The notes under the pieces are model-generated. The model made no database searches. It saw only the letters and a list, made by a program, of their open reading frames with translations, and had not been told where the DNA came from. A DNA stretch of 64,000 bases from Candidatus Nomurabacteria bacterium. GTDB lineage: Bacteria; Patescibacteriota; Patescibacteriia; HK-STAS-PATE-3. The stretch spans positions 864,001 through 928,000 of the forward strand of contig CP060223.1 of assembly GCA_023898465.1 (NCBI GenBank), in the 5' to 3' direction. Below, in pieces: positions 7,309-51,068 of this stretch. Position numbers and translations under genes: made by a program. Position 1 is the stretch's first letter. The number at the start of each line of letters is the position of its first letter.

Positions 7309-7309
7309 A

Positions 7310-8185
7310 TTAGCCAGTCCAATGGAACATCATAATGCTAAAATCAACCACATCAACTAAGCCACTCTTATCAATATCAGCCCTAGTGTTGGCCGGGTGT
7401 GTATCAAGCCAGTAATAAAGCAAAATACTGAAGTCGACTAAATCAACTGAGCCGTCACAGTTTAAATCAGCAATGTTTGCGTAGCTGCAAGGATCTGGTT
7501 CAGTTGCCTCACTTACTACAAAGGTGAGTGTAGAGCTGTATTCAGAAATGCTGCTATCTGTTGCAACTGCACGAGCTCGAATACTATAGGTTCCAATACT
7601 GCTCAGCTCTTGCCCGCCCTGTAACGTATAAGACCATCGTCCGTCGGTATGAGCCGTTGCAGAAAAACTTTGATCACCATCTGGACCCGAGAGATAAAGT
7701 GTAAGCTGACTATTTGGCGCGGTATAACCTTGAATTTGGACACCTTCATCTAATCGAATACTGCTTGCACTGCCTTGTATGGTGGGGCCGAGAAAAATAC
7801 CACTCGCGCTTACCGTGGTGCCCTCTGCTATAGTAACCGACAAGGATAAACTAGGACCAAGCACGCCGTCTATATCAGTTCCCTGAATAGTGAAAGTGTA
7901 GGTGCCGGCTAAAATTTCGCTCTGAGTAGCAAAAGCAGCTGTACTAGTTGCAGTCGTACTCAACCAGGTACTTCCATTTTTCAATATTTGAATACTTGCT
8001 GAGGGGTAGGCGAGGCCCTGAAACTGTACAATGGTTTTTGGTTCTTCAGGCGGAGGCGGCGCTTCAACCACCGCACTCACCGAGAGTGTGTGCTGATCTG
8101 TCACTGTAGCGGCAAAGGCGCTAAGCAAAAAAAGCGGCAGAATGCTTAGCATGCTGACGACGGCAACGATGCTCCGTGTCTTCAC
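7310..8185 (-). CDS. Secreted dockerin-containing protein (Ig-like T/S-rich body + C-terminal type-I dockerin)
   Basis: Signal peptide. The C-terminus holds two 12-residue Ca-binding loop repeats with exact dockerin spacing, DLNCDGSVDLVDF and DIDKSGLVDVVDF, each followed by a hydrophobic helix. Confidence 0.7.
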   Translation of the reverse strand: MKTRSIVAVVSMLSILPLFLLSAFAATVTDQHTLSVSAVVEAPPPPEEPKTIVQFQGLAYPSASIQILKNGSTWLSTTATSTAAFATQSEILAGTYTFTIQGTDIDGVLGPSLSLSVTIAEGTTVSASGIFLGPTIQGSASSIRLDEGVQIQGYTAPNSQLTLYLSGPDGDQSFSATAHTDGRWSYTLQGGQELSSIGTYSIRARAVATDSSISEYSSTLTFVVSEATEPDPCSYANIADLNCDGSVDLVDFSILLYYWLDTHPANTRADIDKSGLVDVVDFSIMMFHWTG

Positions 8186-9237: not shown

Positions 9238-9272
9238 TAAAAATTCAACAATACCTGTGGATTACTTTACCA

Positions 9273-10343: not shown

Positions 10344-10353
10344 AGTCTATTGA

Positions 10354-11424: not shown

Positions 11425-11427
11425 TCT
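11312..11427. repeat. 116-bp segment identical (1 mismatch) to 12497..12612: 5' coding end + upstream region of paralogs 2 and 3
   Basis: tcagaaatactcgtcaaattggcagcaaaaaccggtcgagctgggaa[g/a]ctcaacaccgttac...ccgtacattct is present at both sites. Confidence 0.7.
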
Positions 11428-11505
11428 GAAAGTAATATAGAGGCTAAAACTCTACAAAACAAGCTTTCTAGGTATTAGAATAGCATAAAATTGAGTTCTC
11501 GTCAA

Positions 11506-12609
11506 TTAGAAAACCGCAGTGGCAATATAAGTAATGTCGGTTTGATAAAGACCCGCTTCAGTTATAGATGCGATATTCGCAATATAATGCACAAAAATCG
11601 ATTCTGCATTAGTTGGCCCAGTTTCGCTTACAAATTCAGTTACCGTGCTCGCAACAAAATTCCAATCTGATAAACTCGGCAAAGTGCTGTTCCATTGATA
11701 GCCGGATGTGATAACTGCGTCGTCCGACTTATCTGCCGACAAAGCGAACTGCTCTGTTCCTGGTGTACCATTGCCATCATTACTAATAGTTGCAGGACTA
11801 ATGGTATCTGATCCACTTGTTAAAGTTGCTCCATAATATGTGATGGCATATCCGCTGGTAGCATTTGTGCTTACTGTTAAATTATGTGCCGGTGAACTAT
11901 TCGTCCCTGTACCGTTGCCATCACTAGTAGCATAACGAGCCGCGCTTGAACTCAAGGTGCCAAATCCTACCGTGGTGTCAGAAATAGCAAAGGTAATGGA
12001 AGGATCAACCGTTGCAGTTACGTTGACGCTATCGTCAGCAACAAAATCAAGTGCAAATTTGCCGAAGTCATCAATTGCTCCCAAATTTCCAAAAATATCA
12101 ACTACATGGGTATTGGTATCATTCGGGTTAACTAATTGAGCATTCCCTCCTGATGCATTTGTACCAATCTGAATTTGCACACATCGTCCTGCTGGAATTT
12201 CTCCACTTGTGGCATCTGTTGGCGCATCAAATATTATATATTCAGAGGAAAGCTGGTTCACCGAAACTCCCCATACACCTGCAGCATCTGAACTCGCTAG
12301 TGTTTTTTCTGTCCAAGACCCATCACATCCCCCATCATCATCAACGGCTAAATCAATGTCGGTATAATCAAGAGTTGAAAAACCAAAATTAGCGAAATCA
12401 AACCGATAATAGTCTGCGTCAGCATCTACACCAACTGAAGTAATAAAATAAATCTCATGATTTGCAGCAGTATTTTGAGTAAGCGAGCTTAACGTATCAG
12501 AAATACTCGTCAAATTGGCAGCAAAAACCGGTCGAGCTGGGAAACTCAACACCGTTACAAAAACTGCTATGAGAATGGCTATTTGTATTTTTTGTAGCTT
12601 TCCGTACAT
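11506..12609 (-). CDS. Secreted Thr/Ser/Asp/Gly-rich protein, paralog 3
   Basis: The start is set at MYGKLQK by analogy with paralog 2; the track ORF begins 6 codons upstream at 12627. The C-terminus is ...AGLYQTDITYIATAVF. Confidence 0.55.
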   Translation of the reverse strand: MYGKLQKIQIAILIAVFVTVLSFPARPVFAANLTSISDTLSSLTQNTAANHEIYFITSVGVDADADYYRFDFANFGFSTLDYTDIDLAVDDDGGCDGSWTEKTLASSDAAGVWGVSVNQLSSEYIIFDAPTDATSGEIPAGRCVQIQIGTNASGGNAQLVNPNDTNTHVVDIFGNLGAIDDFGKFALDFVADDSVNVTATVDPSITFAISDTTVGFGTLSSSAARYATSDGNGTGTNSSPAHNLTVSTNATSGYAITYYGATLTSGSDTISPATISNDGNGTPGTEQFALSADKSDDAVITSGYQWNSTLPSLSDWNFVASTVTEFVSETGPTNAESIFVHYIANIASITEAGLYQTDITYIATAVF

Positions 12610-12612
12610 TCT
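12497..12612. repeat. Second copy of the 116-bp repeat (see 11312..11427)
   Basis: See the first copy. Confidence 0.7.
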
Positions 12613-12668
12613 AGAAATCGAAAACATCCTAATGAATAAAACACTATAGAACTTAAGACGTCAACTGA

Positions 12669-15600
12669 CTAGAATTTGCCAGTTACCACGTAAGTGATAT
12701 CGGTTGAGTAACTTCCAGCTGGGGTCGTACCAGCCGCATTAGCAATGTAATATATGCTGAAATTCTCAGTGGCCGTGCTACCAGCTTCTGAGGCAATGGT
12801 TGTGGTGGTATTTGCTACAAAGGAATAATCAGCTGGCGAAGTAGCATCATAACCAGAGGCGATGGTTGCGTCACCGTCTGTGGTACACGCAATGCCAAAC
12901 TGCTCACTCCCAGGTGCGCCATCATCATCATTGGAAATAGTGGCCGCATTAATATCATCAGACCCACTGGTAAGTAATGGTCCATAATAGGTAAGCGCAT
13001 ATCCATCATCCGCTGAGGTACGGACTGAAATAGTATGCGCCGAGGTTTTTGTACCCGTGCCTGATGCATCGCCGGTCGCGTATCTGGCGCCAGAGGTACT
13101 TAGAGGACCAAAGCCAACGCTGGTGTCAGAAATACTGAATTGCACTGCGTCAAAATCCCAGTTAGTTGTGTTTTGGCAATCAATATTTGAAACATGACTT
13201 GAATCAATCAAGTCACCGCCAGAAGCATCAGACCGACCCACATTTACAAACTTCACTGTTTGCGCGCCACTCACGTCAAGCAACCAGGTACCTGAACCCA
13301 AGCTAGAATTACGGAAAATTATTTCACTGCCATATGTCTGCCCATCCCAGTTAATATCATTCATGGTATAGGTTGAGCCAGAGTTATACTCTACTTTTAC
13401 ATCACTCGTAGTAATAGTGTATTCACCTGCTGTAGTTGCTGCCGCCGCAAAATCAACTCCAGGGGTAAAGGAAGCTGAACAACCAGAATACGACCCACTA
13501 CTGTTTTCAATTGCTAAGTCATAAAATGACGAAGCGCTTGTCATTGTTCCGGATAACGTTTGTAGCGAGGAACCATCTAAAACAACTCGGCTATTACCAT
13601 GAGTAAAGGTGTCACTATTTGCCCAATCACCGGCCAAAGTCAGCTCAGGTGAAAAGGCTGTAGAATTTACTTTTTGCTTTGTGCCACCTTCGTTTACACG
13701 TAAGGCAACCTGAGTTGGACTTGATCCTCCGCAAGAAGGAATAGCCAACCATATGGCAAACTCTACATAAAGCACTTGATTAGTAAGCGTTTCTTCTGGG
13801 ATGCCAGTAATAAAAATGGCATAGTCATTCGTTCCTGTGCTTATATTCACATTTTTCCATCCTGAGATTGCAACCGGATTTGCTAAGTCAGCATCAGCCT
13901 TCCATAATCTTGCGTTCACTTGACGTCGTCCGTATGAGCACGATCCGGCAGTATAGACCGTTGTGATATCTACCGACCAGGTACCAGCAGCGAAGGTTCC
14001 AGTAATTGGCTGACCATTGTTAAGCATCCATCCGGTATTAGTGATAGCACTCGGAATGCTTCCATCCCATGTGGTACTTGTATTCCCTGGCACAAAAGTA
14101 CAATATCCACTTTGACCTGTGCCGGTATCGTCGCATTTCGTCGTATCATTCGATGAGCCACTCGGGTCAACCGGCTTCATGCGCCAGCTCGAACCATAAC
14201 CACTCGTGTCACTGGTCAAATACCACGCTGTAGGACCACTCAGATCAAAGGTTCCGCCAGTAATGTTTACATCTCCGTTTATATCAAGAGGATAAATGGT
14301 TTTATAGGTAGCGCTCCCCCCAGCATCGTTAAGCTCAAGGTTATTTAAATTAGTTGCCGCTAGAGATGACGCTTCACTAGTGTCGATATATTGCGTGCCG
14401 CTTGTAGCATTCAATACTAAGTTACCAGTCGACTCAATAATAGTATCATTGTTGGTAAAGTTGCCAGCAACATACAAAGTATTTGCTCCATTAAAATCAA
14501 AGGTGCCGCCATAAATAGTGAGGTATCCATTGACATCCATGTCAGTCAGGAGATTCCACTCAGCCCCACCGCCGCTATCATTAAACTCAACATTATTAAA
14601 GAAGTCACTCCCTGTTCCATCTGCATCTATATCATAGGTACCGCTGCCCGCCTGGAAAAGCACATAGCCCGATGTATGAGAGAATGTACCATCGTTGTTC
14701 CAACCTCCACCTAATATCACAAATGATGACCCCACACTCAGGGTACTATTATCAATATGTACATCAGCTGCCTGAGTGGTAATGTTGCCGGCTGGCGCAT
14801 AGGTATCACCATTCCAAATATGCAGCTCAAAACCCGAATCAAAGGTTGCCGCTGATCCTGAAACACTATATTTAATATCATCGTCACCACTATCGCCGGT
14901 ATTTAGATTGGCGTTACTGATTGATCCAGTATCAGCTCGAACAATGACTGTATTCTGATACAGATCTATATCTGTCTTTGCCACACCATCAGACACAAGC
15001 ACAGTTGTTGCCTCCTCTGTTTCGTCATCGAGATATACAGTGACAATGTCGGTTGAGTTTGCTGGCACGCTTGTAATAGACCAAGCGCCGCTGCTGTCGG
15101 TAATTTCATCAGTGTAACTACCACTACCATTCACTTTCAGTGTGACCGTTTTGTTTACACCGCTCCCATCAAGTGGTGTAGTCCCTTCATTAGTATAGGC
15201 AATACCCGAAAGGTTAATGCCAGCCGCAAAAAGCCAGTTGGTGTTGTTTAGACAGTCAGTGTTTGTACCATCAGAAGCATCAATCTGATCACCACTAGAA
15301 GCGTCAGATCGGCCAACATTCACATAGGAAACTGCAGTTTGAGTACCCGAAACATCCAGCAGCCAAGTACCTGAACTTAAATTAGAGTTTCGGAAGATAA
15401 TATCATTACCAGTAGAAGCGCTCCAGTTAATATTTGTAATTGTATAAGTGGATCCGGAATTATATTCCACCTTCACGTTATTAGTCGTGATGGTGTAGTT
15501 ATTGCTTACTGTTGCGCTGTCAGCAAAATCAATACCGGGAGTGAAAGAGGTTGAACAACCTGAGTAGCTACCTGAACTGTTGGTAATGCTAAGATTATAG

Positions 15601-18600
15601 AAAGATTCTCCATCAGAGGTTATTGTTTGCGTCGAGGACCCATCAAGAATAACAGTTGACTGATCCGCGGTGAAAGTAGCGCTCCCACCAAAAATCATGC
15701 TCCCAGCTACATTAATTGTTGTTTCATCAGTCTCAACATCATCAGTGGCATCAAGTGTCCCATTAATAGTGAAAGTACTGTTAATATCCATTTCATATCC
15801 ATTAGTGTATAGGGTATCACCGGCGGCGATCGTTAAACTCAAGTAAGTCATATCAGTACCTAAGTTCAAACTGTCAGGAGAGGTACCAACCTGGACATTA
15901 CCTTGATTCTGCTTTGTCGCATTATTATCGTAAGCAAAAACATCTGCATCAAAAATCATTGTTCCACTACCAGTCGGACCGGTAAAAAGACCTCCGCTCG
16001 CCAAAGTGAAATCGCCAGCGATATTCATATTGACATTAGCATCGGCAGTGAAGCTCCCTGCGCTAACATCAAAAGTGCCATTCACATCCATGGCATCGGT
16101 ATTACTAATACTGCCACCAGTCACATCAAAATTTTGCAGGGCGGTAGTCGCCGATGTGAGCGTCTTTGACGTGCCATCCATCTCAAGGATGTTACCTGTA
16201 GAAATAGTAGTGGTCCCATCACTTAAATCAATATTTCCCGAGACGGACCAAGTGCCTGCTCCAGTAACTATCTGACCGTTACTCGAACCAAGCTTCACAT
16301 AAGAGACATCACCTGTAATTGAAACATCAGGGTCATTGTTATCACCGGTTAATGCAACAACTTGATTGTCTTCAACGGTTACTATTAAGGATCCGCTAAT
16401 AGTATGCGTACCAGCGCCCATATCGACCAACACACTAGTGAAGGAGGTGCCATTTGTATACACTTCTACATCATTACCGTAGGTACGAGCCGGCATGGTC
16501 ATATTACCTCCAGCACCAGCATCAAAACGAACAACTGAGGAGAGGGTGCCGCCTGTTGGAATTGTTGTCGTTGTTGCTACGGTTAAGCGTCCCGCTCCAG
16601 TAATTGAACCTGATAAAGTAAAACTTGACCCGGACCAGGTAACGGTACGACCTGATGAAATGCTTAAGGTGTCACTACTAGAAACAACTAAACTATTCGT
16701 AATCTCCACATCGCTTGTCTGCACGGTGATCGTGCCTGTTGAGCTAGGATCAACTGTAAAATTATACAGACTGTTTCCACCACCGCTGAACGTTTCTGCT
16801 GTTCCAGTCATTTTTAAATCCGCTGTAGAAACGACACTATAGGTGCCGTCCTGAAAATCAATACTACCCGCCACACTCCATGCGCCAGTGCCTGGCTCAA
16901 GGTCCTCGGTGCCTGTACCAACACCTGTGAAATCAATATCTCCTCCAATAGTAACAGTTGGGTTATTTGTTGAACCGTAAAAGTGAATATCACTACCATT
17001 TGCCGCGTTTAGAGTGAAATTATCTGATACAATAATACTGCCGGATCCACCAGTCACACTCGTCGTGCCGCCAAAAGGAGCGTTATTGTAAAGTTCCACA
17101 TAGCCTCCGTAGGTCCTCGCTGACATTGTCTGGTTATTACTCGTGGCATCAAAGCGTAGATTTGCTGAAAAGGTTCCAGTCGTGGGGAAGGCGGTAGTAG
17201 ATGTATAGATAAGTAAGCCAGCTCCTGAAATAATGCCTGATAAGGTTAAGGTGGATCCGCTATGTGTTAAGGTACGGCCGGTATCAATAACGAGTTGATC
17301 ATTTGATCCGACATCTAAAGTGCCACTCACTGTCAGGTCCGAAGTTTGCAAAGTGGTGGCTCCGCCAAATAGTGCATCAATGGTGAGATTATAAAGAGTG
17401 TTTCCGCCTCCAACTATAGTCACAGCGGTGCCGCTCATAACAACGGTTGAAGTTCCAGCTGTTACTGTTCCACCAGCCATATTAAGGTTGCCAGTTATGT
17501 TGTGACTTTCACTAGAAAGAGTAACAGTGCCTGAGAGCGTGAGATTTTTATATATGTTTCCTGCAATTGTTAGCGTCCCACTCCCATCCATCACTAGTGT
17601 ATTTGTACCTTCAATGGTATAGGTGCCGTTCGTAAAGTCAGCGCTACCTGAAACAGTCCAGGTCCCGGCCCCTGAGGTAATTGTTTCAGTTCCAGCCCCT
17701 GCTCCAGTGATAAAGTCTAGATCGCCTCCGATATTTACATCAGGATCATTGGTAGCCGCATCAACCGTAACAGAACAGTTACTGTATCCTTCGATTTCAA
17801 GATTTCCATCAATCGTAATGGTCTGACTACCCGCAGATCCAAAATTAACTTCTCGAGAACTCAGACCGCAGTCAGCCTGAATATAGATACTACCCCCAAA
17901 GGTTCTGCCTGGAATAGTATGGTCAGCGGTTGTTGGGTAAAAGAAAACATTCGCGTCCATGGTCCCGGTGGACGGAAAAGTTGCTGGGGTATAGTAATAG
18001 ACATACGCATTACCGCTGATGGTTCCGTTCAACACGAGTGAGGTGCCGGTATCATTATATAAATCAAAGTAAGACCCTGACTGAAGTGCTGCTTCATCAT
18101 TCGCGGCAACGGTTAAGGTATTATCAACAGCCACGCCATCATTAATAGTGATCGTCCCTGCCGAGCTGGGATCAATCTCTAAATCATAGAATGTGGCGCC
18201 ATTTGCCCAAATATTTCCACTAGTGCCAGTCATGACAAAGGTATGCCCAGTGGCAATATTTGTTGCCCCAGGGTCACGGAGATCAAGATTACCGCCGATC
18301 GACCAGGTACCACTACCGGTCGTAATATGTTCAAAAGAGCCTGGTCCATCTTCACGATCTAAATCGCCACCAATAACCAGATCGGGATTCCAAACCGAAC
18401 CATCTATAGTTGCCGATGAACTCTGCGCATAAATTAAAAAGCTTCCGTTAATAGTAATGGTTTGTGAGGCAGCACTCCCTAATATCAACTTATAAGAAGA
18501 AAGACCTCCTTGATAGTATTCCACATCACCCTGGTAGGTACGTGCAGTCATGGTTCGATCAGCAGATCCAGAATAGTACTGCAGTAACGCGCTAATAACT

Positions 18601-21600
18601 CCCGTTGTAGGGAAGAGTTCGCTTGTCTTATAAATAACTTTTCCAGATCCTGAAATTGTACCGTCGAGAGAGATCGCCGTTCCTGTTGTCCTAATTAAAT
18701 TAACAGTCCGGCCACTATCAATTACTAATTCACCATTACTCGAGACAGTTAATACCTCTGAGATTGAAAAATCAGAAGTCTGCATAGTAATTGTTCCTGC
18801 AGAGCTTGGACTAATACTAAGATTACGTAGGGTGCGATTATCTGCCACAATGGTATTACTCGTACCCGTCATAACAAAGAGATTTCCAGATGATGAGCTT
18901 AAATTACCATTGGAGAAATCAATATCCCCTCCAACAGTCCAAGTGCCACTGCCTGTTAAAATATATTCCTGCCCGGACCCAACCCCAATATACAAAAGAT
19001 CACCGCCTATGTTTACGGTAGGATTATAGGTGGTGCCATAAATATATTGGTAATTGGTACCTGCAGCATTTATCCATAAATCACCGTCGATGGTTACTGT
19101 TTGACCTGACGAACTGCCCATATACATCACACGAGCAGTGCTTCCACTGTTGTACGCTTCCACACTACCTCCATAGGTACGACCACTTAAACGAGGATTT
19201 CCGTTAGTTGTATCCATGCGAAGATTCACGCTGATAGTGCCTGTAGTAGGAAAGTTAGTTGTCGACGCATAGCTCACCCATCCACTACCACTTAAAATCC
19301 CGTTGAGCGTAAGCACGGTGCCTGTTGTCTTTGAGAGCGTTATAAATACAGCGCTATCTAAACTAAATGTGTCGCTGGTTTGGACGGTCAAAGCGTTGCT
19401 AATGGTGAAGTCATTAGTGTTCGCAGTGATAGTTCCAGTTGAGCTTGGATTAATAACCACATTATAGTGTTGCTGATCGGTATTGAAGGTATTGCTGGTG
19501 CCGGTCATTGTGAGCGTACTAGTATTACTCGTCAGCCCTCCACTGCTTGTCATGGTGTAATTTCCTCCTACGGAAATACTGGCCGAACCAGCATATACAA
19601 CCGCGCCGCTTGAAGTATGAGAGAAATTTCCACTGATTGTTACAGGTGTTTTAGTAATCGTGAGACTGCCGGACATGCTCGTCACTGAAATGCTTGCCAC
19701 GGTTGCAACCGCACTAGTATCCCAGTCCGAGTTATCATTACTGGTACCGTCAAAAATTATATCGTCACTGGTGCCTGGACATGTATCGTTATTCCAGTTT
19801 GCACATTCAGACCAGCTGGCAGTTGTTCCATCACCATCCCATGTCTTGGTTGCGTCAGCCGCGATCTGCCAGAGTCGAGCTTCAGTAAACGCAATGCTCT
19901 CATCTCTACGAGTAAACTGCAGCGGTCCCAACTGATAGAAGAATGGTGAAACATTTGGTGCATCAAAAGTGTAAGCAAGGGTATATTCCTCTCCTGCTAG
20001 CCAATCCACTTCCCATTGAATAATGCGATGTCCATCTTGCGGATCACTTACCGTGCCATCGCCACTGATAGCACTTATCGCAAAGGTATCCGGAACCTCT
20101 TCGGTAACTATTCCCTGAAAACCCTCGCTAGTTTGAACGGTAAACTGTACCGGGTATTGAGCGGGAGGATAAATGCGTGTAGGAAACTCTGTGCGCTGTA
20201 CTGAAAAAGGCACTACATCCGCCAGAGAAAAATGATCTTGAATTTGTCGCGTGCCATCCTTGGTAGTGGCTTGTACATCAACTTGATATTCACCTTCTTG
20301 AGTCCCAGTGTAGAAGAATGAATAATCCGGCTCGTTTGTCACGCTTTTATCTACACAATCAGGGTTCTTTTCAATCGTCGCGTCGCTGGTATGAAATACT
20401 GAGGCACTGCCTGATGGATCAGTTACGGTGACATCAATATTTGCATCGCAAACTGTTCGCCCTAAATCATCCACTACTGCTAAGTGCACTTTTTGTGCCG
20501 TGTTTGTCGGGGCTAAAGACTGTCGTACATTTACTGCTACTACGCCCCAATAAAAAGTTTGTGTAAGCACTTTATCTTCCCCTAAGGCAGTCGTCGCAAT
20601 CTCAACTTCATACTTACCTGGTCGCCCAAAATCAGCTTCACTGAAACGAAGCTCTAGCTCCCCCTCAGCAGTGAGTACTTCACTCGGATCAGATTGAATT
20701 TCTTCACCAACAGGCGTACGCAACTTCACCTCTTTAACTAAAACAGTTGAGACGGGTGATTGCTTTGTTGTCTCAACCGGGTGCATCGCTTTCAGTTTCA
20801 TCACCGGCTCTTCATCAGCTTGAATAACCTGTGTTTCAGTTTCCAAACTTAGATCATCGCTAGAAGGAAGTGGGATAAAGATGGGTGTTTCATTTGTCCT
20901 TTCATCTACGTGTAGCTGCCACGCGTGCTGCTCAGACCAGCTACTTCCATAGGTCTGATTATTTCGAAACTCGGCAAAGCCATCGGCACGAAGCGGACCA
21001 AGAACAAAAGATTGAGGTGTCTGCTCCGGGGCTTTCACGACATAGGAGAGGCTAGCTGATTCACCTTTTTTCCAAACTACAGACCACTGCAACTCATCGC
21101 CAATTTGCTTTCCCCCTTGCCCAACACTACTTATTTTTAAATTGGCAGGTATGGGCTCTACAACGGTGCCAATATAGTCGTCTCCAACCACAAATTCTAA
21201 AAAGACATCGTAACTCTGTTTAGGCACCAAGCGGGTTGGAGCGATTCGCGTCAGCTGCAAATTTGTCTGCTCAACAACCTCTAAAGTGCTTTGCGCTCGA
21301 TATGTGCCAGCGTATGAGGATGCATCTAAGCGTATTCGATACTCGCCAACTTCATCGAGAGGAAAGGAGGCCAAATAATCGGCCACGCTACTCACTACAT
21401 CAGGACTGCAGTCCTCTGAGCGCTGGATACCTTCAGTCAATGCATAGTCATTGTGCACACCTGATGGTGAAATCGTCTCAATATGCACATCCGCATTGCA
21501 AATTGTCCTACCATTATTATCAAGAAATCCTAGGGAAAGTTGCGCAGTATCATTTAATTGATAGACTGATCGAGCGTCGTTCATAATAACCACTCCCCAG

Positions 21601-22625
21601 TCAAAAGCCTTACGAATGGTTTGCACTACGTCATCTTGCTGCAATGTAAAGACGGCAATATAGCGACCGGGTGTATGAAAATTTTCCCTATCAAATGACA
21701 CTAGGGTTTGCTGACCCCCGCTCACTTTTTCTGCAGTAGTATGTACTGCGGGGTGATATTCCTTATCATCAGGATCGATGAGAGAAACGGATTGAATGTT
21801 GCGTTGGAGTGGCTTCACACCCAAGAAGCCAAACGATGAATTTTCTTCAGTTTGGATTTTTACTTGCGGAGTATCGAGTGAGAAAAAGGTTGTCGCGTCC
21901 ATTTGCACATATTCACCTAAGCGCAAGCTTGTCTTTGCTTCTCGTCGATAGGTGAGTTGGAGGCGAGCGCCATCAAAATAGGCTGTAGCTGAGTCAAGCG
22001 GCGGCTCTGGAATATATCGTACGCGCACCATAAAATCCTTCGCTTGGGTAAGTGCATCAATGCCATCGATGTGATAAGTCCAGTATCCACTGTGTCGTGC
22101 ATTACTTTGCTCTTCCAGAAGCGCAAAAGAGTCTAGGGAAATCCAATTAATTCCACCGTCAATTGAATACGCAAAAACTACAATATCCTCGTTATTTGCA
22201 TAAGTATTTGCCGCGAAAGAAAGATCAAGCATGGCATCAATATCAACTGCATCAGCTGGAATAGCATCAGAAAAAGCAAAATCCCCGCAGGTCAACCAAG
22301 CCTCGCCATTCTGTAAGGGCTGCGCATCTATGTTATCAGGACTGTTTTGAAACCAAGCCGCATTCTCACGCGTAAAATCGCCTGCATCAGCAGATCCAGG
22401 CAAATCAAGCTCCTGGGCTCCTTCGGTAAAATTCCATCCTTCGCAAGACCCGGGATTAAGTTGGACTGCACTTTCGCCAGCTACCAACATTTTTTGTCGG
22501 ACGTAGTAGGCGCTCTGAAAATCAACCGGCTGCAATGCGGGCAAAAGAAATAGTCCAGCCACAAGCAGGGTAAAAATACCAAGCAATCCTAGCGCTTGGC
22601 CGGTATGAACTACCTGCGTATGCAT
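12669..22625 (-). CDS. Giant (~3,318 aa) secreted surface protein: signal anchor, duplicated N-terminal domains, ~5 tandem ~180-aa beta-helix-like T/S/G-rich modules, and a C-terminal domain homologous to the three small paralogs
   Basis: A single uninterrupted minus-strand ORF. The ATG start is chosen at MHTQVVHTGQALGLLGIFTLLVAGLFLLPA; the track start at 22697 is a TTG. Recurring module ...L(T/S)L(N/D/S)G(T/I)ISG(S/A)G...Y...T..FPTTGT(I/F)S(A/V)NLRFD.... A ~110-aa segment (CS(T/A)SFTPG(I/V)DFA...NVGRSDAS) is duplicated. The last ~170 aa align to the paralogs at 9273-12609. Confidence 0.7.
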   Translation of the reverse strand: MHTQVVHTGQALGLLGIFTLLVAGLFLLPALQPVDFQSAYYVRQKMLVAGESAVQLNPGSCEGWNFTEGAQELDLPGSADAGDFTRENAAWFQNSPDNIDAQPLQNGEAWLTCGDFAFSDAIPADAVDIDAMLDLSFAANTYANNEDIVVFAYSIDGGINWISLDSFALLEEQSNARHSGYWTYHIDGIDALTQAKDFMVRVRYIPEPPLDSATAYFDGARLQLTYRREAKTSLRLGEYVQMDATTFFSLDTPQVKIQTEENSSFGFLGVKPLQRNIQSVSLIDPDDKEYHPAVHTTAEKVSGGQQTLVSFDRENFHTPGRYIAVFTLQQDDVVQTIRKAFDWGVVIMNDARSVYQLNDTAQLSLGFLDNNGRTICNADVHIETISPSGVHNDYALTEGIQRSEDCSPDVVSSVADYLASFPLDEVGEYRIRLDASSYAGTYRAQSTLEVVEQTNLQLTRIAPTRLVPKQSYDVFLEFVVGDDYIGTVVEPIPANLKISSVGQGGKQIGDELQWSVVWKKGESASLSYVVKAPEQTPQSFVLGPLRADGFAEFRNNQTYGSSWSEQHAWQLHVDERTNETPIFIPLPSSDDLSLETETQVIQADEEPVMKLKAMHPVETTKQSPVSTVLVKEVKLRTPVGEEIQSDPSEVLTAEGELELRFSEADFGRPGKYEVEIATTALGEDKVLTQTFYWGVVAVNVRQSLAPTNTAQKVHLAVVDDLGRTVCDANIDVTVTDPSGSASVFHTSDATIEKNPDCVDKSVTNEPDYSFFYTGTQEGEYQVDVQATTKDGTRQIQDHFSLADVVPFSVQRTEFPTRIYPPAQYPVQFTVQTSEGFQGIVTEEVPDTFAISAISGDGTVSDPQDGHRIIQWEVDWLAGEEYTLAYTFDAPNVSPFFYQLGPLQFTRRDESIAFTEARLWQIAADATKTWDGDGTTASWSECANWNNDTCPGTSDDIIFDGTSNDNSDWDTSAVATVASISVTSMSGSLTITKTPVTISGNFSHTSSGAVVYAGSASISVGGNYTMTSSGGLTSNTSTLTMTGTSNTFNTDQQHYNVVINPSSTGTITANTNDFTISNALTVQTSDTFSLDSAVFITLSKTTGTVLTLNGILSGSGWVSYASTTNFPTTGTISVNLRMDTTNGNPRLSGRTYGGSVEAYNSGSTARVMYMGSSSGQTVTIDGDLWINAAGTNYQYIYGTTYNPTVNIGGDLLYIGVGSGQEYILTGSGTWTVGGDIDFSNGNLSSSSGNLFVMTGTSNTIVADNRTLRNLSISPSSAGTITMQTSDFSISEVLTVSSNGELVIDSGRTVNLIRTTGTAISLDGTISGSGKVIYKTSELFPTTGVISALLQYYSGSADRTMTARTYQGDVEYYQGGLSSYKLILGSAASQTITINGSFLIYAQSSSATIDGSVWNPDLVIGGDLDREDGPGSFEHITTGSGTWSIGGNLDLRDPGATNIATGHTFVMTGTSGNIWANGATFYDLEIDPSSAGTITINDGVAVDNTLTVAANDEAALQSGSYFDLYNDTGTSLVLNGTISGNAYVYYYTPATFPSTGTMDANVFFYPTTADHTIPGRTFGGSIYIQADCGLSSREVNFGSAGSQTITIDGNLEIEGYSNCSVTVDAATNDPDVNIGGDLDFITGAGAGTETITSGAGTWTVSGSADFTNGTYTIEGTNTLVMDGSGTLTIAGNIYKNLTLSGTVTLSSESHNITGNLNMAGGTVTAGTSTVVMSGTAVTIVGGGNTLYNLTIDALFGGATTLQTSDLTVSGTLDVGSNDQLVIDTGRTLTHSGSTLTLSGIISGAGLLIYTSTTAFPTTGTFSANLRFDATSNNQTMSARTYGGYVELYNNAPFGGTTSVTGGSGSIIVSDNFTLNAANGSDIHFYGSTNNPTVTIGGDIDFTGVGTGTEDLEPGTGAWSVAGSIDFQDGTYSVVSTADLKMTGTAETFSGGGNSLYNFTVDPSSTGTITVQTSDVEITNSLVVSSSDTLSISSGRTVTWSGSSFTLSGSITGAGRLTVATTTTIPTGGTLSSVVRFDAGAGGNMTMPARTYGNDVEVYTNGTSFTSVLVDMGAGTHTISGSLIVTVEDNQVVALTGDNNDPDVSITGDVSYVKLGSSNGQIVTGAGTWSVSGNIDLSDGTTTISTGNILEMDGTSKTLTSATTALQNFDVTGGSISNTDAMDVNGTFDVSAGSFTADANVNMNIAGDFTLASGGLFTGPTGSGTMIFDADVFAYDNNATKQNQGNVQVGTSPDSLNLGTDMTYLSLTIAAGDTLYTNGYEMDINSTFTINGTLDATDDVETDETTINVAGSMIFGGSATFTADQSTVILDGSSTQTITSDGESFYNLSITNSSGSYSGCSTSFTPGIDFADSATVSNNYTITTNNVKVEYNSGSTYTITNINWSASTGNDIIFRNSNLSSGTWLLDVSGTQTAVSYVNVGRSDASSGDQIDASDGTNTDCLNNTNWLFAAGINLSGIAYTNEGTTPLDGSGVNKTVTLKVNGSGSYTDEITDSSGAWSITSVPANSTDIVTVYLDDETEEATTVLVSDGVAKTDIDLYQNTVIVRADTGSISNANLNTGDSGDDDIKYSVSGSAATFDSGFELHIWNGDTYAPAGNITTQAADVHIDNSTLSVGSSFVILGGGWNNDGTFSHTSGYVLFQAGSGTYDIDADGTGSDFFNNVEFNDSGGGAEWNLLTDMDVNGYLTIYGGTFDFNGANTLYVAGNFTNNDTIIESTGNLVLNATSGTQYIDTSEASSLAATNLNNLELNDAGGSATYKTIYPLDINGDVNITGGTFDLSGPTAWYLTSDTSGYGSSWRMKPVDPSGSSNDTTKCDDTGTGQSGYCTFVPGNTSTTWDGSIPSAITNTGWMLNNGQPITGTFAAGTWSVDITTVYTAGSCSYGRRQVNARLWKADADLANPVAISGWKNVNISTGTNDYAIFITGIPEETLTNQVLYVEFAIWLAIPSCGGSSPTQVALRVNEGGTKQKVNSTAFSPELTLAGDWANSDTFTHGNSRVVLDGSSLQTLSGTMTSASSFYDLAIENSSGSYSGCSASFTPGVDFAAAATTAGEYTITTSDVKVEYNSGSTYTMNDINWDGQTYGSEIIFRNSSLGSGTWLLDVSGAQTVKFVNVGRSDASGGDLIDSSHVSNIDCQNTTNWDFDAVQFSISDTSVGFGPLSTSGARYATGDASGTGTKTSAHTISVRTSADDGYALTYYGPLLTSGSDDINAATISNDDDGAPGSEQFGIACTTDGDATIASGYDATSPADYSFVANTTTTIASEAGSTATENFSIYYIANAAGTTPAGSYSTDITYVVTGKF

Positions 22626-22710
22626 CTGCAATTGTGCCTTCGGATTTTTCTTTGTTCTTTGACGTGGTGTCGGCACCGAAGCCCCCTCGAAAAGCAAAAA
22701 AAGTTGTTAC

Positions 22711-30055: not shown

Positions 30056-30146
30056 TGGCGGTGGGAGAGGGATTTGAACCCCCGATACCCTTTCGGGTAT
30101 ACCGCATTTCGAGTGCGGCCCATTCGACCACTCTGGCATCCCACCG
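30056..30146 (-). tRNA. tRNA-Ser (anticodon CGA), CCA encoded
   Basis: Cloverleaf with acceptor ggtggga/tcccacc, anticodon loop cuCGAaa, long variable arm, T-loop ttcaaat. Confidence 0.8.
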
Positions 30147-30153: not shown

Positions 30154-30429
30154 TTAGCGAATTGTATTTTGGAGTAAAAATTTCAGACGCTCACGTCCCT
30201 TTCCCGTCTTCAAAAATCTTTCCTCAAGTACTGCATCATTTTTGTTTGAGAACACCTCATAGTAAACGAGTGACCAATCTTGCGACCGGGATGTATAGCG
30301 CGATCTGCCGGACTTATGTTCGCTTACCCTCTTTTTTAAATCACTTGTACTGCCGATATACTTCTTTTTTAGATGAATACTATACAATATGTATACATAA
30401 TACATATTTCTCCTTGTATCGATCACCAC
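30154..30429 (-). CDS. GIY-YIG nuclease family protein (91 aa)
   Basis: YVYILYS...KYIGSTSDLKKRVSEH...N. Lies immediately 5' of tRNA-Ser on the same strand. Confidence 0.7.
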   Translation of the reverse strand: MVIDTRRNMYYVYILYSIHLKKKYIGSTSDLKKRVSEHKSGRSRYTSRSQDWSLVYYEVFSNKNDAVLEERFLKTGKGRERLKFLLQNTIR

Positions 30430-30490
30430 CTATCCCGCCCGAGGCGGGTCCGCCTTGGGCGGACGACCACTCTGGCACCTCTCCAAAACG
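30430..30490 (-). repeat. Partial duplicate of the tRNA-Ser 5' end (acceptor + D-arm, ~21 nt) plus two GC-rich hairpins, upstream of the GIY-YIG ORF
   Basis: On the minus strand ggagaggtgccagagtggtcg aligns with the tRNA 5' end ggtgggatgccagagtggtcg. It is followed by hairpins tccgcc-caa-ggcgga and cccgcc-tcg-ggcggg. Confidence 0.5.
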
Positions 30491-30523: not shown

Positions 30524-31063
30524 TCAAGCACGATACACCCACAAACTACTATGACCTCGCGGGCGAGGATTTCGTATTTCTTCCGAAGCCTGCCAATCTG
30601 GGAAACGAAATCCATAAGAATAGACTGACGCTCCCTTCTTCAACTGTTTCCGAAGTAGGGTTTCGGTATCTGCCATAACCGCATCAAGTAGGAAACAAAA
30701 AATCAAATCAGCATCATGCAGGTCAGCAGTAAAATAACTTACGTGACGGATTTCTACACCAGTACCGCGCGACCTCCAACGAGCCAAGAGGTAGGGCCAC
30801 CAGGCAATCTCATACCCAATCGCTCGAATGCTTGGATGCGCTTTCTTCAAAGCACGGAGCACTCGGGCATCACCGCAACCAAGATCATACACCACTGCAT
30901 CTTCGATTAAATCTACATGCTTTGCCATCCACTCCACTGCCCAGCGTGAGGTGGGTACATAGGGCACCTTATTTCGAAGAACGCTCCATAGCGCATTCAA
31001 AGCAAAGGCTAAAGCCACCAAGGCTGCTACCAGGATGAGAAGGAGTATACTAATAAGAAGCAT
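30524..31063 (-). CDS. Class I SAM-dependent methyltransferase with N-terminal TM helix
   Basis: Motif I VYDLGCGDARVL. N-terminal hydrophobic segment. Confidence 0.55.
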   Translation of the reverse strand: MLLISILLLILVAALVALAFALNALWSVLRNKVPYVPTSRWAVEWMAKHVDLIEDAVVYDLGCGDARVLRALKKAHPSIRAIGYEIAWWPYLLARWRSRGTGVEIRHVSYFTADLHDADLIFCFLLDAVMADTETLLRKQLKKGASVYSYGFRFPDWQASEEIRNPRPRGHSSLWVYRA

Positions 31064-31069: not shown

Positions 31070-32443
31070 TTAAAAAAGTGATGACTGACTTAAACGCTTC
31101 CGATCACTGTCAGACAAGAGAGTGATATGACCGTACTCGCCGTCGTAGCCTGGCTCTACTTCTACTTTACCTTCGCGTAATCGCTGAATAGCCTCAACTA
31201 TTGGCGCCTCGGTCATTTTTTTCAGCTGCTCAATCGGCACTTCGCTCAACACTTTTAACTCACCGCCACCCTGAGAAACGAGAGGCCAATAAAGCGCTTC
31301 AACTTTTTTTGTGGCGCGCCCGCGCACACCAAGCGCCTGGGCAATTACCTTATCCAGCTCCACGAGCGAGAGGAAGTCAGGCGCGCCTTCTGGTCGTCGT
31401 CCTTCAGCTTCAGTTGTTAACTCTTCTACTCGATTTAATACGCCGATGGTCAGTGGTCGTCCGCACTTTGGACACATGCCTTTTAACTTCCGAGATTCAG
31501 CAGGAGAGAGGCAGACTTTGTGATCCCGATGTCCATCATAATGATAGCGACCCTCGTCTGGAAAAAATTCTAAAGTCTTACGTAGAGTGAGTTTTTCTTT
31601 TATAGGTTTCTTACGCGCCTCGGGCGATGCATTACGAATAGCCGTAAAGATATTGTCATAGCTCAACTCTTCACCTTCAAAAACTGTGGCTTCACGTCCG
31701 AGGTTAGGAAGCGAATGCGCATCAGAGCTAGAAACAAGCGCAACTTTATCCAATCCTTTGACTCGCCAGTTCATTGCCGGATCGGAAGATAAGCCTGTCT
31801 CGATTGCAAAAATTTCCGGCGCCAGCTCCTCGAAACACTCCTCGATTGAATCATAACCTGACTTAGAACCAAAAATAGCAAACCAGGGTGTCCATGCGTG
31901 CGCAGGGATAATATGACAACGAGGATCTACTTTGCGGATAAGCAAGAGTAAATCTTTAGAGGAGATGCCGAGTATTGGTCGACCGTCTCCGCCTAACTTA
32001 CCTCCTCGCTTCATTAATGCCGCGTTGATACCGGCGACTGCTTCAATCGAGGGAGCAAAAACCGTGTGATGTACACGGCGCACCTTACCGCCGTGCGAGT
32101 AAATACACGACAACTCTGTGGCGCAAATAAAGTGTACTTCCTCATCGCTCTTTTCGGTGAAGCGCGCATCTTTGACTCGATACTCTGGCTTCAAACGGTA
32201 GAGACCATCCAGGCTGGGTTCTAGCTTCTCTTGTAACTCTGGAAACCACTTGGGATGCGTAAAATCGCCGGTCGCCATTAAATGCAAACCTTTAATGCGT
32301 GCCCATAAATCGATATTCTCTAAAGTAAGCTGAGGGGAACAAGCTCGAGCGTATTTGGAATGAATATGGAGGTCAGCAATGATTTGCATACTTGGGTATG
32401 GTAGCGCATACCAAGGCGTCTGGAAAGAAAACAGCGCACTCAT
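31070..32443 (-). CDS. Endonuclease Q (EndoQ) homolog: PHP-domain endonuclease with C-terminal Zn finger
   Basis: IADLHIHSKYARACS...KGLHLMATGDFTHPKW, RVHHTVFAP, IPAHAWTPW, SSSDAHSLPNLGRE, CPKCG. All are collinear with archaeal EndoQ (Pyrococcus PF1551-type). Confidence 0.8.
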   Translation of the reverse strand: MSALFSFQTPWYALPYPSMQIIADLHIHSKYARACSPQLTLENIDLWARIKGLHLMATGDFTHPKWFPELQEKLEPSLDGLYRLKPEYRVKDARFTEKSDEEVHFICATELSCIYSHGGKVRRVHHTVFAPSIEAVAGINAALMKRGGKLGGDGRPILGISSKDLLLLIRKVDPRCHIIPAHAWTPWFAIFGSKSGYDSIEECFEELAPEIFAIETGLSSDPAMNWRVKGLDKVALVSSSDAHSLPNLGREATVFEGEELSYDNIFTAIRNASPEARKKPIKEKLTLRKTLEFFPDEGRYHYDGHRDHKVCLSPAESRKLKGMCPKCGRPLTIGVLNRVEELTTEAEGRRPEGAPDFLSLVELDKVIAQALGVRGRATKKVEALYWPLVSQGGGELKVLSEVPIEQLKKMTEAPIVEAIQRLREGKVEVEPGYDGEYGHITLLSDSDRKRLSQSSLF

Positions 32444-32466
32444 GGAAAAGTACGCTGTAGAACAAG

Positions 32467-32796
32467 CTAGTGAATGTCATCAACCAGACTCCAAGGACTC
32501 GCTCGATCAAGGCAAGTCTGTGGCGCGCCACCAACATTCCTTATGCGAATCCAGACCATTCGCTGCCACAGTCCCTTGGCACCAGTCCGCTGACTGCGCT
32601 TTCGACGAACAGCCACACAGGCATCTCCATCTTCCAGCACTATGAGTATATGGTCATCGTCTGGAGTTGCCTCCTGGCCGGCTCGTAAAATCTGATAGGA
32701 GACCTTGCCTTGCAGCACACCGATGCAGCCCTCTGACACCAGGATTCGTGAGTCATCCGGGACAAGCACCACTTTCGTTACATCCCCTTTACTCAT
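32467..32796 (-). CDS. Cupin-fold small protein
   Basis: The start is chosen at MSKGD. The beta-rich VVLVPDDSRILVSEGCIGVLQGKVSYQ...DDHILIVLEDGDACV resembles a cupin barrel. GC-rich. Confidence 0.35.
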   Translation of the reverse strand: MSKGDVTKVVLVPDDSRILVSEGCIGVLQGKVSYQILRAGQEATPDDDHILIVLEDGDACVAVRRKRSQRTGAKGLWQRMVWIRIRNVGGAPQTCLDRASPWSLVDDIH

Positions 32797-32858
32797 GCTC
32801 CCACCTCTAAAGTAAGAGAGAGCAGCGTACCCTCGAAAGAATACGCTGCCTATCAATG

Positions 32859-33869
32859 TCAGGCGTCAACAGCTGCCTCGATAGCAGCCAACAAACGACC
32901 TGAACTGTGAGTGAGCAAATGCGTCCACTTGGCAAAGTTGCCAGCTCGATCGCCATTCCCTGAGAACTGCGAAGGAACCAAGTCAAGCTCCACGAAGCGA
33001 ACTTGCGGGAAATGCTGACGGGCACCGTTGAAGATCACTGGCCGAGAGCCGAGTGCTCCATAGTGCTGCAACACTTCCTCGGGAATAGAACCCGAATTGA
33101 CAATGACCACATCCGGCTCGCGTCCGCAATACGGATGAAGCTGTCGAACGTGCTGCTCCGCATCCCAGTCATCGGTCAATCCCGGCTGTGTCATCAAGTT
33201 AATGACCTGAATCACTTGCGCTTGTGAAGCATGAAATGCTTCGCGCATCCCAGCTGGCAGCAAGGCGCTCACCAAACCGGTATGAAATGATCCAGGGGCA
33301 ATAATGATGACATCAGCTTGTCGAATCGCTTCCAGACTACCAGAGTAGGCCGGCGCATCAACAGACAAGCTCATCTGCTTGATTGGAATGCGAGGATCAC
33401 GCTTGATGATCTCCCACTCTCCAGTCACGATGCTTCCGTCCTCCAGGCTTGCCCGGATGTGCACATTCGATTCGGTCGCAGGCAACACCTGACCCTGACA
33501 ACCCAGATCAACCCTGAAGATGTCAAAGGCTCGGGCGATCCCGTGCTGATTAGTGAGTCGTGCCAAACGTGTGTTGGCTGGCGATGTGCCATCAGAATTG
33601 CGCGTTGCGAGACGATCTCGCTCAGCACTCTCTGGAGCCAAGGCCAACAAACACTGCTTCCCGTCACCTACCTGTGGGATATGGAACTCAGTACGAAGCA
33701 CTCCACTATGCCCACCATTGTCAGTGACTGATACGATGCCAATGAGGCCCTCCAGCTGCTTTCCGCCGCTGGCGAGCGCTCTCAAGATGTTCGCCTGTCC
33801 GGTTCCTGCACCGATGCAGACGACGCGCTTGCCGCTCAAGGCGGAAACTTGCTGAATCATGAACCTCAC
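32859..33869 (-). CDS. YvcK/CofD family (UPF0052; gluconeogenesis factor / 2-phospho-L-lactate transferase-like) protein
   Basis: VVCIGAGTGQANILRALA...IVSVTDNGGHSG and overall fold-family architecture. GC-rich relative to neighbours. Confidence 0.6.
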   Translation of the reverse strand: MRFMIQQVSALSGKRVVCIGAGTGQANILRALASGGKQLEGLIGIVSVTDNGGHSGVLRTEFHIPQVGDGKQCLLALAPESAERDRLATRNSDGTSPANTRLARLTNQHGIARAFDIFRVDLGCQGQVLPATESNVHIRASLEDGSIVTGEWEIIKRDPRIPIKQMSLSVDAPAYSGSLEAIRQADVIIIAPGSFHTGLVSALLPAGMREAFHASQAQVIQVINLMTQPGLTDDWDAEQHVRQLHPYCGREPDVVIVNSGSIPEEVLQHYGALGSRPVIFNGARQHFPQVRFVELDLVPSQFSGNGDRAGNFAKWTHLLTHSSGRLLAAIEAAVDA

Positions 33870-36100: not shown

Positions 36101-37138
36101 CTAGGCAACGGTTTCCCGCTGCGCAAGGAACTGCGTGATTTCGTCACGCGAAGGGACCGAGGATCCCCCGAGACGACTGATCGTAATAGCTGCTCCAGCC
36201 GCGGCCCAACGCAGGGCTTCTGACTTGGACTTGCCATCGAGCAGTGCCCCGATGTAACAGGACAGGAAGGTGTCACCGGCGCCGGTCAAATCCTTGATCG
36301 GCGTATCAGCAAACACTTCGCCGTTGATGCTCTGTTCTCCACCGTTGTACAGAGTGGCACCTTTGGGGCCTCGAGTAACCAAGACCTCCATATGCCGGCC
36401 CTGCCCAATGGCTTGGAGCTCGCTCACCGTACTGAAGCCGAAGCCTCGGAGCAAATGCGCTTCTTCTTCCTCGTTCACGGCCAAGAGGTCGGTGCAAGAG
36501 AGAAGCTGACGCAGGGCTGTGTGGCGACGACGTTCTTCGAGCTCATTACTGAGCTCATACACCAGACTGATCCCGGGATTCAGAATGTTCATCGACGGAG
36601 CAGCTTGACGACCACCCGCTTCAAACATCGCCAGCACCAGAGGCGCATCTGCGATCTGGACACCCGTACCCACAGTCATGTGAGGACGAACTTGATCCAC
36701 CTGTCGGCGAATCAACTCCGCACCACGCTCCATCGCGTCCGGAAGATAGTTGCCCTTTCCAGCGATGATGCGTTGTGCACCGTCCTTGGCTGAGAGACTG
36801 ACCGTGATGTTCGTCCTTTCCCGCAAAGGGAGAGGAAAAGCATCCAACTCCAGCCTACGCAGCTCGGCTTCGAGGTAGCCGGCGTAGCGATCATCACCGA
36901 CCGTACACAGCAGCTTGACCAACTGCCCGCTACGAAGCAGTGCGCGCGCGACGTTGAACGAAGAACCTGCTGCAATCAAGTCAAAGTCACTTGCTGCAAC
37001 CTGTTGCTTCACCACGTCGCTTGTCCCATCAAAACCAGAGACCGCCATTTCCATGTTGGCACTAAAGCCAACCAAAACAGTTCGAGACATGCTGTTCCCC
37101 CAGCGTTTCGTAAGCGCTCCCTGTGCTCCCGTGAACAC
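36101..37138 (-). CDS. PfkB-family carbohydrate/ribokinase-like kinase
   Basis: C-terminal signature DLTGAGDTFLSCYIGALL. N-terminal GG-type motif region. High GC. Confidence 0.75.
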   Translation of the reverse strand: MFTGAQGALTKRWGNSMSRTVLVGFSANMEMAVSGFDGTSDVVKQQVAASDFDLIAAGSSFNVARALLRSGQLVKLLCTVGDDRYAGYLEAELRRLELDAFPLPLRERTNITVSLSAKDGAQRIIAGKGNYLPDAMERGAELIRRQVDQVRPHMTVGTGVQIADAPLVLAMFEAGGRQAAPSMNILNPGISLVYELSNELEERRRHTALRQLLSCTDLLAVNEEEEAHLLRGFGFSTVSELQAIGQGRHMEVLVTRGPKGATLYNGGEQSINGEVFADTPIKDLTGAGDTFLSCYIGALLDGKSKSEALRWAAAGAAITISRLGGSSVPSRDEITQFLAQRETVA

Positions 37139-50992: not shown

Positions 50993-51068
50993 GCGCGCCT
51001 AGCTCAATGGTTAGAGCAGTCGGCTTATATCCGACCGGTTCCAGGTTCGAGCCCTGGGGCGCGCACCA
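50993..51068 (+). tRNA. tRNA with anticodon TAT (Ile, AUA-reading), CCA encoded
   Basis: Acceptor gcgcgcc/ggcgcgc, anticodon stem gtcgg/ccgac, loop cuUAUau, T-loop ttcgagc. Confidence 0.7.

Follow-up and report, generated by a model that had tools for sequence, protein, structure and literature searches.

A probably catalytically intact endonuclease Q with a clamp-type tail in a Patescibacteria chromosome

Does an endonuclease Q (EndoQ) gene found in a bacterial genome represent an archaeal enzyme in a foreign setting, or a bacterial gene in its usual place, and would its product still act on damaged DNA? The question arises from an open reading frame (ORF) in a 64-kb window (i.e., the whole stretch of DNA analysed here), which the first-pass annotation had described as an archaeal-type EndoQ, collinear with the Pyrococcus enzyme and only sporadic in bacteria. 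Taken together, our analyses point to a likely reading in which the ORF encodes a catalytically intact, clamp-tethered bacterial EndoQ in a Patescibacteria (CPR) chromosome.

Gene limits, sequence matches and predicted fold

In the ORF listing of the window, a 457-aa ORF spans exactly 31070..32443 on the minus strand. The true start is probably Met19 of this ORF (ATG at 32389, MQIIADLHIHS...), because homologs of 439-442 aa have N-termini coinciding with this residue, and a 97% identical homolog (P0001) diverges completely upstream of it. The probable EndoQ coding sequence is thus 31070..32389 (minus strand), which corresponds to a protein of 439 aa plus the stop codon, while the mechanical ORF reaches 32443.

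Searched against all PDB sequences with phmmer, the ORF matched the Pyrococcus enzyme (PfuEndoQ; 5zb8, 7k30-33) at an E-value of 2.3e-43, with an alignment running end to end (query residues 21-444 to chain residues 3-384), and the sole other match had an E-value of 0.25. The NCBIfam profile TIGR00375 was covered over positions 2-374 of 374 (E-value 2e-43), yet despite this whole-profile match the score stayed below the equivalog cutoff (149 vs. 326.6 bits). On these profile scores, the window protein is a member of the TIGR00375 family that lies outside the trusted range of the equivalog. The Pfam copy used detected PHP_C alone in the ORF, and homologs bear a precomputed PF27218 assignment.

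A three-dimensional model of the window protein, built with AlphaFold2 from an input alignment of 44 sequences, reached a pLDDT of 93.7 and a pTM of 0.91, with the Zn-binding domain confident throughout. Foldseek matched this model to the apo and DNA-bound structures of PfuEndoQ (5zb8 and 7k30) with E-values from 1e-33 to 2e-36, superposing ~435 columns at an rmsd of 2.3-3.1 Å (TMq 0.80-0.82, TMt 0.89-0.90). The runners-up were PHP-only phosphoesterases, with TMq values of at most 0.34. [quoted passage not shown] The identification of this ORF as an EndoQ collinear with that of Pyrococcus therefore stands, on the phmmer E-value, the end-to-end alignment and Foldseek TM-scores of 0.80-0.90.

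Active site, lesion pocket and zinc knuckle

The residues that define EndoQ function were taken from Miyazono et al. 2018 (PMC5961232) and from a review of the DNA complexes (PMC8307549), and are compared here with the window protein in Met19 numbering. The N-terminal PHP nuclease domain (31562..32389, minus strand; ~aa 1-276) has approximate limits mapped from the Pfu domain limits. It contains counterparts of all seven PfuEndoQ metal ligands, H8, H10, E76, H84, H139, D193 and H195, at H8, H10, E92, H107, H164, D223 and H225, respectively. An alignment of 121 sequences (120 best homologs and the window protein) shows no variation at these ligands, apart from four N-terminally truncated sequences that lack the HxH block; the loss of metal-binding PHP residues, named by the first-pass annotation as evidence against its assignment, was thus not seen.

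Beyond the metal centre, mutagenesis of PfuEndoQ has identified R114, W144, G169, L170, Y244, K243 and R201 as essential non-ligand residues (PMC5961232). Six PfuEndoQ residues, R114, W144, G169, L170, S171 and Y244, are identical in the window protein (R137, the wedge residue W169, G199, L200, S201 and Y282), and the DNA-contacting K243 is replaced by R281. Overall, wherever a mutation abolished or strongly lowered the activity of PfuEndoQ, the residue concerned is conserved, with the sole exception of R201, a DNA-backbone contact. Backbone contacts are changed at three positions (R201 to N229, R251 to D289 and K276 to T314).

The pocket itself is similarly conserved. All the residues forming the lesion pocket that excludes T and A in PfuEndoQ (H139, G169 and S171, with T142, E167 and L170) are identical in the window protein, and H139, G169 and S171 are the base-discriminating residues in the EndoQ-DNA complexes (PMC8307549). 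Pocket positions in the window PHP domain comprise T167, E197, T198, G199, L200, S201 and S221, among which T198 and S221 are changes in the pocket wall (from L168 and N191). Position 191 varies within the clade, where it is H, N, S or F.

The zinc knuckle departs further from the archaeal enzyme. It lies at 31463..31531 (minus strand), within a Zn-binding domain (31367..31561, minus strand; ~aa 277-341, approximate limits) that is collinear with Pfu residues 239-303. Here H287 and H290 (H305 and H308 in ORF numbering) stand at Pyrococcus C249 and C252, and C306 and C309 at C268 and C271, so that the knuckle reads HxxH...CxxC and only its second half is Cys-x2-Cys. The first-pass annotation had listed all signature blocks of EndoQ, including CPKCG: the CPKCG motif is indeed there, but the first half of the knuckle is HxxH, not Cys. 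The first ligand is His in 121 of the 121 sequences; at the second, Cys predominates (112 sequences), nine others carrying His, among them the window protein and the closely related P0003, and the commonest knuckle in the clade is HxxC...CxxC. By comparison, Pyrococcus EndoQ and its Brevibacillus (Bacillales-type) homolog both carry a C4 knuckle (C-x2-C...C-x2-C). All four aligned residues of the window protein are potential Zn ligands, and Zn binding by this H2C2 set is plausible.

Could these substitutions have given an EndoQ fold a different specificity, making the protein mainly an AP endonuclease or an enzyme with another lesion spectrum? The altered pocket wall, the variability of position 191, the three changed DNA contacts and the H2C2 knuckle would all be compatible with such a shift. 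However, the residues responsible for base discrimination (H139, G169 and S171) are invariant, as are L170 and W144, and the two residues replaced in the pocket wall, L168 and N191, supply main-chain atoms to the PfuEndoQ pocket (PMC5961232). We thus regard a shifted specificity as improbable, and, judging from the conserved residues, the encoded EndoQ is likely to be catalytically intact.

The C-terminal tail and a proposed role in repair

The C-terminal helical domain (31112..31366, minus strand; ~aa 342-426, approximate limits) closes with the conserved GYDGEYG block, and is followed by a variable linker (aa 427-434) and a pentapeptide, QSSLF (31073..31087, minus strand), at the extreme C-terminus of the protein (...RKRLSQSSLF). 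Following a variable linker, a motif of the form Q-x-x-[L/M/I/F/V]-[F/L/M/I/W] lies no more than three residues from the C-terminus in 116 of the 121 sequences, against a background of one in the 49 other ORFs of the window. In the AlphaFold2 model, the linker preceding the motif is helical at moderate confidence (last block pLDDT 72), and there is no clearly disordered tail.

Motifs of this type also occur in EndoQ-helicase fusions. Among the 150 most similar cluster representatives (50% identity), 122 exceed 900 aa, with the EndoQ module forming the first ~425 residues, and the remainder held a UvrD/PcrA SF1 helicase in six of the six long representatives scanned. In such fusions the motif is internal; it was present in 94 of 136 proteins, and in 87 of these 94 it follows the first G of GYDGxYG at a distance of exactly 22 residues (background rate 4.6% per 27-residue window). 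In addition, the C-terminus itself is formed by such a motif in 101 of 122 fusions, in many cases the textbook QLSLF or QLDLF.

The window tail does not match the archaeal PIP box (Qxxhxxaa), having no aromatic pair at +7/+8, and fits instead a bacterial beta-clamp-binding pentapeptide of the QL[SD]LF type. QSSLF occupies the position held by the PIP box in archaeal EndoQ, and TkoEndoQ depends on that box both to bind PCNA (Kd 55 nM) and to be stimulated (Shiraishi 2016, PMC4858679). A beta-clamp consensus in bacterial EndoQ homologs has already been remarked (PMC4858679), so that our result extends a known idea, itself not new, to Patescibacteria and to the helicase-fusion lineage. Going by this short motif, we lean toward an interaction of the window protein with the DnaN clamp. 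No dnaN gene was seen in the 64-kb window.

By homology with the Pyrococcus, Thermococcus, Methanosarcina and Bacillus enzymes, the window protein is expected, with good though not full confidence, to be a functional lesion-specific EndoQ. A deaminated or missing base (dU, dI, dX or an AP site) would be flipped into the pocket beside the Zn centre, and Zn-dependent hydrolysis would break the strand at the phosphodiester bond directly 5' of the lesion, to give a 3'-OH and a 5'-phosphate. The nick would then be processed by strand-displacement or 5'-3' exonuclease synthesis, followed by ligation. QSSLF may tether the enzyme to the DnaN beta sliding clamp, as a bacterial counterpart of the archaeal interaction between PCNA and the PIP box.

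Several observations weigh against this explanation, namely the sub-cutoff TIGR00375 score, the low similarity to the Bacillales-type homolog from Brevibacillus (53 bits, 25% identity), the changes in backbone contacts and pocket wall, and the replacement of two knuckle Cys by His. As regards the clamp, the shortness of the motif, the lack of dnaN in the window and the helical linker of the model count on the same side.

All 78 complete EndoQ ORFs in the 80 related loci are standalone, and a UvrD-like helicase is absent from the 64-kb window and from the vicinity of EndoQ in 77 of the 80. The three loci with a helicase near EndoQ are all titled Nitrospirae or Nitrospirota, and none is a CPR locus; the UvrD-like gene starts ~35 bp after EndoQ in two Nitrospirota loci and lies ~5 kb downstream in the other (L074). 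One might speculate, tentatively, that the EndoQ lineage defines a widespread pathway in which deaminated bases are removed by a beta-clamp-coupled "nick and unwind" mechanism, with the enzyme standalone in Patescibacteria and UvrD/PcrA fused or adjacent elsewhere, e.g., in Nitrospirota. The fused proteins, each with two clamp motifs, would combine an EndoQ cut on the 5' side of the lesion with removal of the damaged strand by the attached helicase. On the same speculative reading, the standalone His-knuckle enzyme of streamlined CPR genomes might be their principal repair route for uracil and hypoxanthine.

Genomic context, lineage and known relatives

The window is an ordinary stretch of bacterial chromosome, carrying gyrA, nusB, RNase III (rnc), S1, ftsH, the CCA-adding enzyme, rluD and msrB. 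Downstream of EndoQ, and on the same (minus) strand, lie a class-I SAM methyltransferase-like ORF of 179 aa with weak matches (30524..31063), a GIY-YIG ORF of 91 aa (30154..30429; PF01541, 59.7 bits) and a tRNA-Ser(CGA) (30056..30145). These neighbours, to which the first-pass annotation had drawn attention, are real; they are not, however, conserved partners. When the window neighbours were searched in the 80 related loci (tblastn), a GIY-YIG gene was within ~3 kb of EndoQ in three, and the methyltransferase adjoined EndoQ in a single locus (L001). A CofD-like gene was within 300 bp of EndoQ in four loci, and a TrmB-like gene within 6 kb in 11. The window and L001, whose EndoQ is 68% identical, have in common the order CofD-like / EndoQ / methyltransferase / tRNA-Ser(CGA). 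A functional module uniting EndoQ with the methyltransferase, GIY-YIG, CofD-like and TrmB-like genes was rejected, since across the 80 loci these are shared only with the closest relatives. The sharing is synteny by descent among close relatives, with no functional coupling of EndoQ to the methyltransferase, the GIY-YIG gene or the tRNA.

The GIY-YIG ORF corresponds to a ~283-nt ORF-only insertion in the spacer between methyltransferase and tRNA-Ser, and is absent from L001. A 21-nt direct repeat flanking it was considered as a target-site duplication and rejected, as an identical 20-mer is found in L001, which has no GIY-YIG. An Rfam scan of the tRNA/GIY-YIG spacer (E ≤ 1) returned the tRNA alone at a convincing score. 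Neighbouring genes also include a TrmB-type regulator, and the methyltransferase is weakly similar to an archaeal lysine methyltransferase.

The methyltransferase gave a weak, partial match to the PADLOC model mad2 (39 bits), and EndoQ itself matched no PADLOC model. A defence-island reading of the locus was rejected on this null result for EndoQ and on the mad2 match being generic similarity of the methyltransferase fold.

An anti-phage function might still be envisaged for the enzyme itself, acting mainly on uracil-containing phage DNA rather than in genome repair: a possible antiviral role of bacterial EndoQ has been cited, and the B. subtilis enzyme is insensitive to inhibition by the phage protein Ugi (PMC8307549). 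The adjoining mad2-like methyltransferase would go in the same direction, but its match is a generic one. The 80 loci have no conserved defence-type neighbourhood, a tblastn search of phage records detected no phage-encoded homolog, and the conservation of a clamp motif suggests that the enzyme acts on cellular DNA, in association with replication or repair. A mainly anti-phage nuclease is thus unlikely, and repair of the host genome remains our preferred reading.

Turning to the lineage, the 120 best homologs are 53-97% identical to the window protein, and those with a named source come from Patescibacteria/CPR or unclassified "bacterium" MAGs (Kerfeld-, Uhr-, Magasanik- and Colwellbacteria). 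NCBI already labels several of them "endonuclease Q family protein", and in older records the name is "DNA helicase UvrD". Six exact peptide patterns, run against a set with a single representative genome for each GTDB species, detected relatives in at least 475 genomes. Most of the best 80 of these 475 bear a Patescibacteria title; a few Nitrospirota, Elusimicrobia and Caldisericia (48-51% identity) are also among them. Others of the 80 are titled "uncultured Gammaproteobacteria", which we suspect to be a placeholder label. On a larger scale, HMMER against 1.84 billion cluster representatives (50% identity) retrieved 3550 matches at E ≤ 1e-3 and 923 at E ≤ 1e-30.

The composition of the gene (GC 0.48, GC3 0.44) resembles that of its neighbours, in a window of GC 0.468. 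The sole plasmid match (tblastn) was a copy on a Brevibacillus megaplasmid, in a chromosomal-type context (NUDIX-endoQ-spoIIM-fur-xerD). An origin from a mobile element was rejected, given the lack of a phage match and the chromosomal-type context of this single plasmid match. The gene is thus at home in a large bacterial lineage, mostly Patescibacteria/CPR, within which it is most probably inherited vertically, with no recent import from archaea.

The weakest alternative is precisely such an import, an archaeal-type EndoQ recently gained by horizontal transfer: although the bit score is nearer PfuEndoQ (151 bits, 32% identity) than Bacillales-type EndoQ, i.e., that of Brevibacillus (53 bits, 25% identity), and the neighbours include the TrmB-type regulator and the methyltransferase of weak archaeal likeness, transfer is very improbable given hundreds of bacterial homologs (50-97% identity) standing between the window protein and any archaeal sequence, the host-like composition, the gene order shared with L001, a tail with a beta-clamp motif and no PIP box, and clade-specific changes (L168T and C249H) common to the bacterial helicase fusions.

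The description of the gene as archaeal-type and sporadic in bacteria is accordingly not upheld, considering the 475 genomes, the 923 clusters, the clade of Patescibacteria already named by NCBI, the native composition and the bacterial clamp tail. That framing reflects the published literature rather than current databases: the published view is one of "limited distribution" for EndoQ, which lags behind the sequence databases. In the literature library searched, nothing relevant turned up on EndoQ in connection with Patescibacteria, CPR or UvrD. The window gene is an ordinary member of a known, already annotated family and not an archaeal oddity, with minor variant features visible in its sequence (the H2C2 knuckle, the tail of beta-clamp type and, when compared with PfuEndoQ, three insertions).

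The locus itself therefore matters very little, its DNA-repair gene being one that can be recognised correctly and is already named by automatic annotation. The broader lineage, with its clamp motifs and helicase fusions, is a more interesting lead. Its members are numerous in Patescibacteria, occur in further bacterial phyla as well and are often fused to a UvrD-like helicase. They offer a reasonable, if unsurprising, target for work on clamp-coupled alternative excision repair in bacteria.

Among known systems, PfuEndoQ and Brevibacillus EndoQ score higher against each other (137 bits, 34% identity) than the window protein does against Brevibacillus EndoQ. From these pairwise scores, the window protein and the Bacillales type appear to form two separate bacterial lineages, each nearer to the archaeal enzyme, a picture consistent with the three EndoQ families proposed by Shiraishi et al., as cited in PMC5961232.

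With PfuEndoQ and TkoEndoQ ("family 1"; 5zb8, 7k30-7k33), the window protein has in common the three-domain architecture, the fold, the metal ligands, the wedge Trp, the G169/L170/S171 pocket, a GYDGEYG-type C-terminal block and a clamp-interaction motif on the C-terminal tail. It differs from PfuEndoQ in being only ~32% identical, with insertions at aa 68-83, 95-101 and 258-266, and from archaeal EndoQ in its HxxH...CxxC rather than C4 knuckle, and in its tail, the beta-clamp-type QSSLF replacing a PIP box of sequence QRTLLQYI or QRSITEFL. In contrast to the hosts of PfuEndoQ and TkoEndoQ, that of the window gene is presumably mesophilic.

To our knowledge, the only characterised bacterial EndoQs are the Bacillus enzymes (Bacillus pumilus / B. 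subtilis), which were represented here by Brevibacillus laterosporus WP_031414379. This protein resembles that of the window in its bacterial host, PHP ligands, GLS pocket, Y244 and NCBI name, but carries a C4 knuckle, a His at the wedge position and a Gln at R114, and is without a QxxLF tail; BLAST aligns only the C-terminal 60%.

The EndoQ-UvrD/PcrA helicase fusions (~1000-1250 aa) are closer, with 45-53% identity over the whole EndoQ module. They have, like the window protein, T at position 168, His at the first Zn ligand (H249) and QxxLF at the same offset after GYDGxYG, and are distinguished from the standalone window enzyme by the attached helicase and by ending in a further, canonical QL[SD]LF.

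A possible mobile gene and a tRNA-like block downstream of EndoQ

Between the methyltransferase gene downstream of EndoQ and tRNA-Ser(CGA) lies a 91-aa GIY-YIG ORF (30154..30429, minus strand), carried on a compact insertion of ~283 nt that hardly exceeds the length of the ORF. The corresponding interval of L001 (9859..9965), the syntenic relative whose EndoQ is 68% identical, lacks this ORF between the same flanking genes. This combination of a compact insertion and its absence from a syntenic locus suggests that the ORF is a free-standing, homing-endonuclease-like mobile gene.

Directly after the methyltransferase stop, we also found a 20-nt block, GGAGAGGTGCCAGAGTGGTC (30465..30484, minus strand), with similarity to a class-II tRNA in its 5′ acceptor and D arm; two GC hairpins come after it. 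The copy of the block in L001 (9894..9913, plus strand) is 100% identical, within flanks that have diverged between the two loci. Neither ARAGORN nor Rfam made a call on the block at 30465..30484, which may be left over from a tRNA or act as a signal for processing.

Upstream spacer and base composition

Upstream of EndoQ, a 415-bp spacer (32444..32858) contains a palindrome (32509..32542) and a 129-aa ORF, for which we obtained neither a Pfam match nor a tblastn match across the 80 related loci. The spacer is probably non-coding, and may include a promoter or regulatory region. In terms of base composition, the nearby CofD/YvcK-like gene (32859..33869, minus strand; GC 0.55, GC3 0.57) and PfkB-family kinase gene (36101..37138, minus strand; GC 0.57, GC3 0.61) clearly exceed the window average GC of 0.47, whereas the EndoQ gene does not.

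Fused, split and interrupted EndoQ homologs

Among the nearest 50%-identity cluster representatives (P0122-P0270), the majority are fusions of EndoQ with a UvrD/PcrA helicase (~1000-1250 aa). These fusions carry two clamp-type motifs, one internal and located after the EndoQ module, the other at the extreme C-terminus and frequently of the canonical form QL[SD]LF. Two Nitrospirota genomes instead encode the EndoQ and helicase halves as neighbouring genes (L067 9307.., L075 9310..). Separately, the PHP domain of some EndoQ homologs is split by a LAGLIDADG-containing insert (P0125, 794 aa; P0134, 834 aa), with P0134 also matching an intein splicing domain.

Other features of the window

ARAGORN predicted a tRNA-Ile with anticodon TAT (50993..51068, plus strand), which is unusual among bacteria. 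Elsewhere, a single 3342-aa ORF (12669..22697, minus strand) lies beside the regions 8203..12627 and 4863..8185; it is adjoined by four ORFs of 344-373 aa without Pfam match, beyond which cohesin, dockerin or Big_13 domains occur in two further proteins. Together, the 3342-aa ORF and its neighbours may be a gene cluster for a giant surface protein, of the kind found in CPR genomes.
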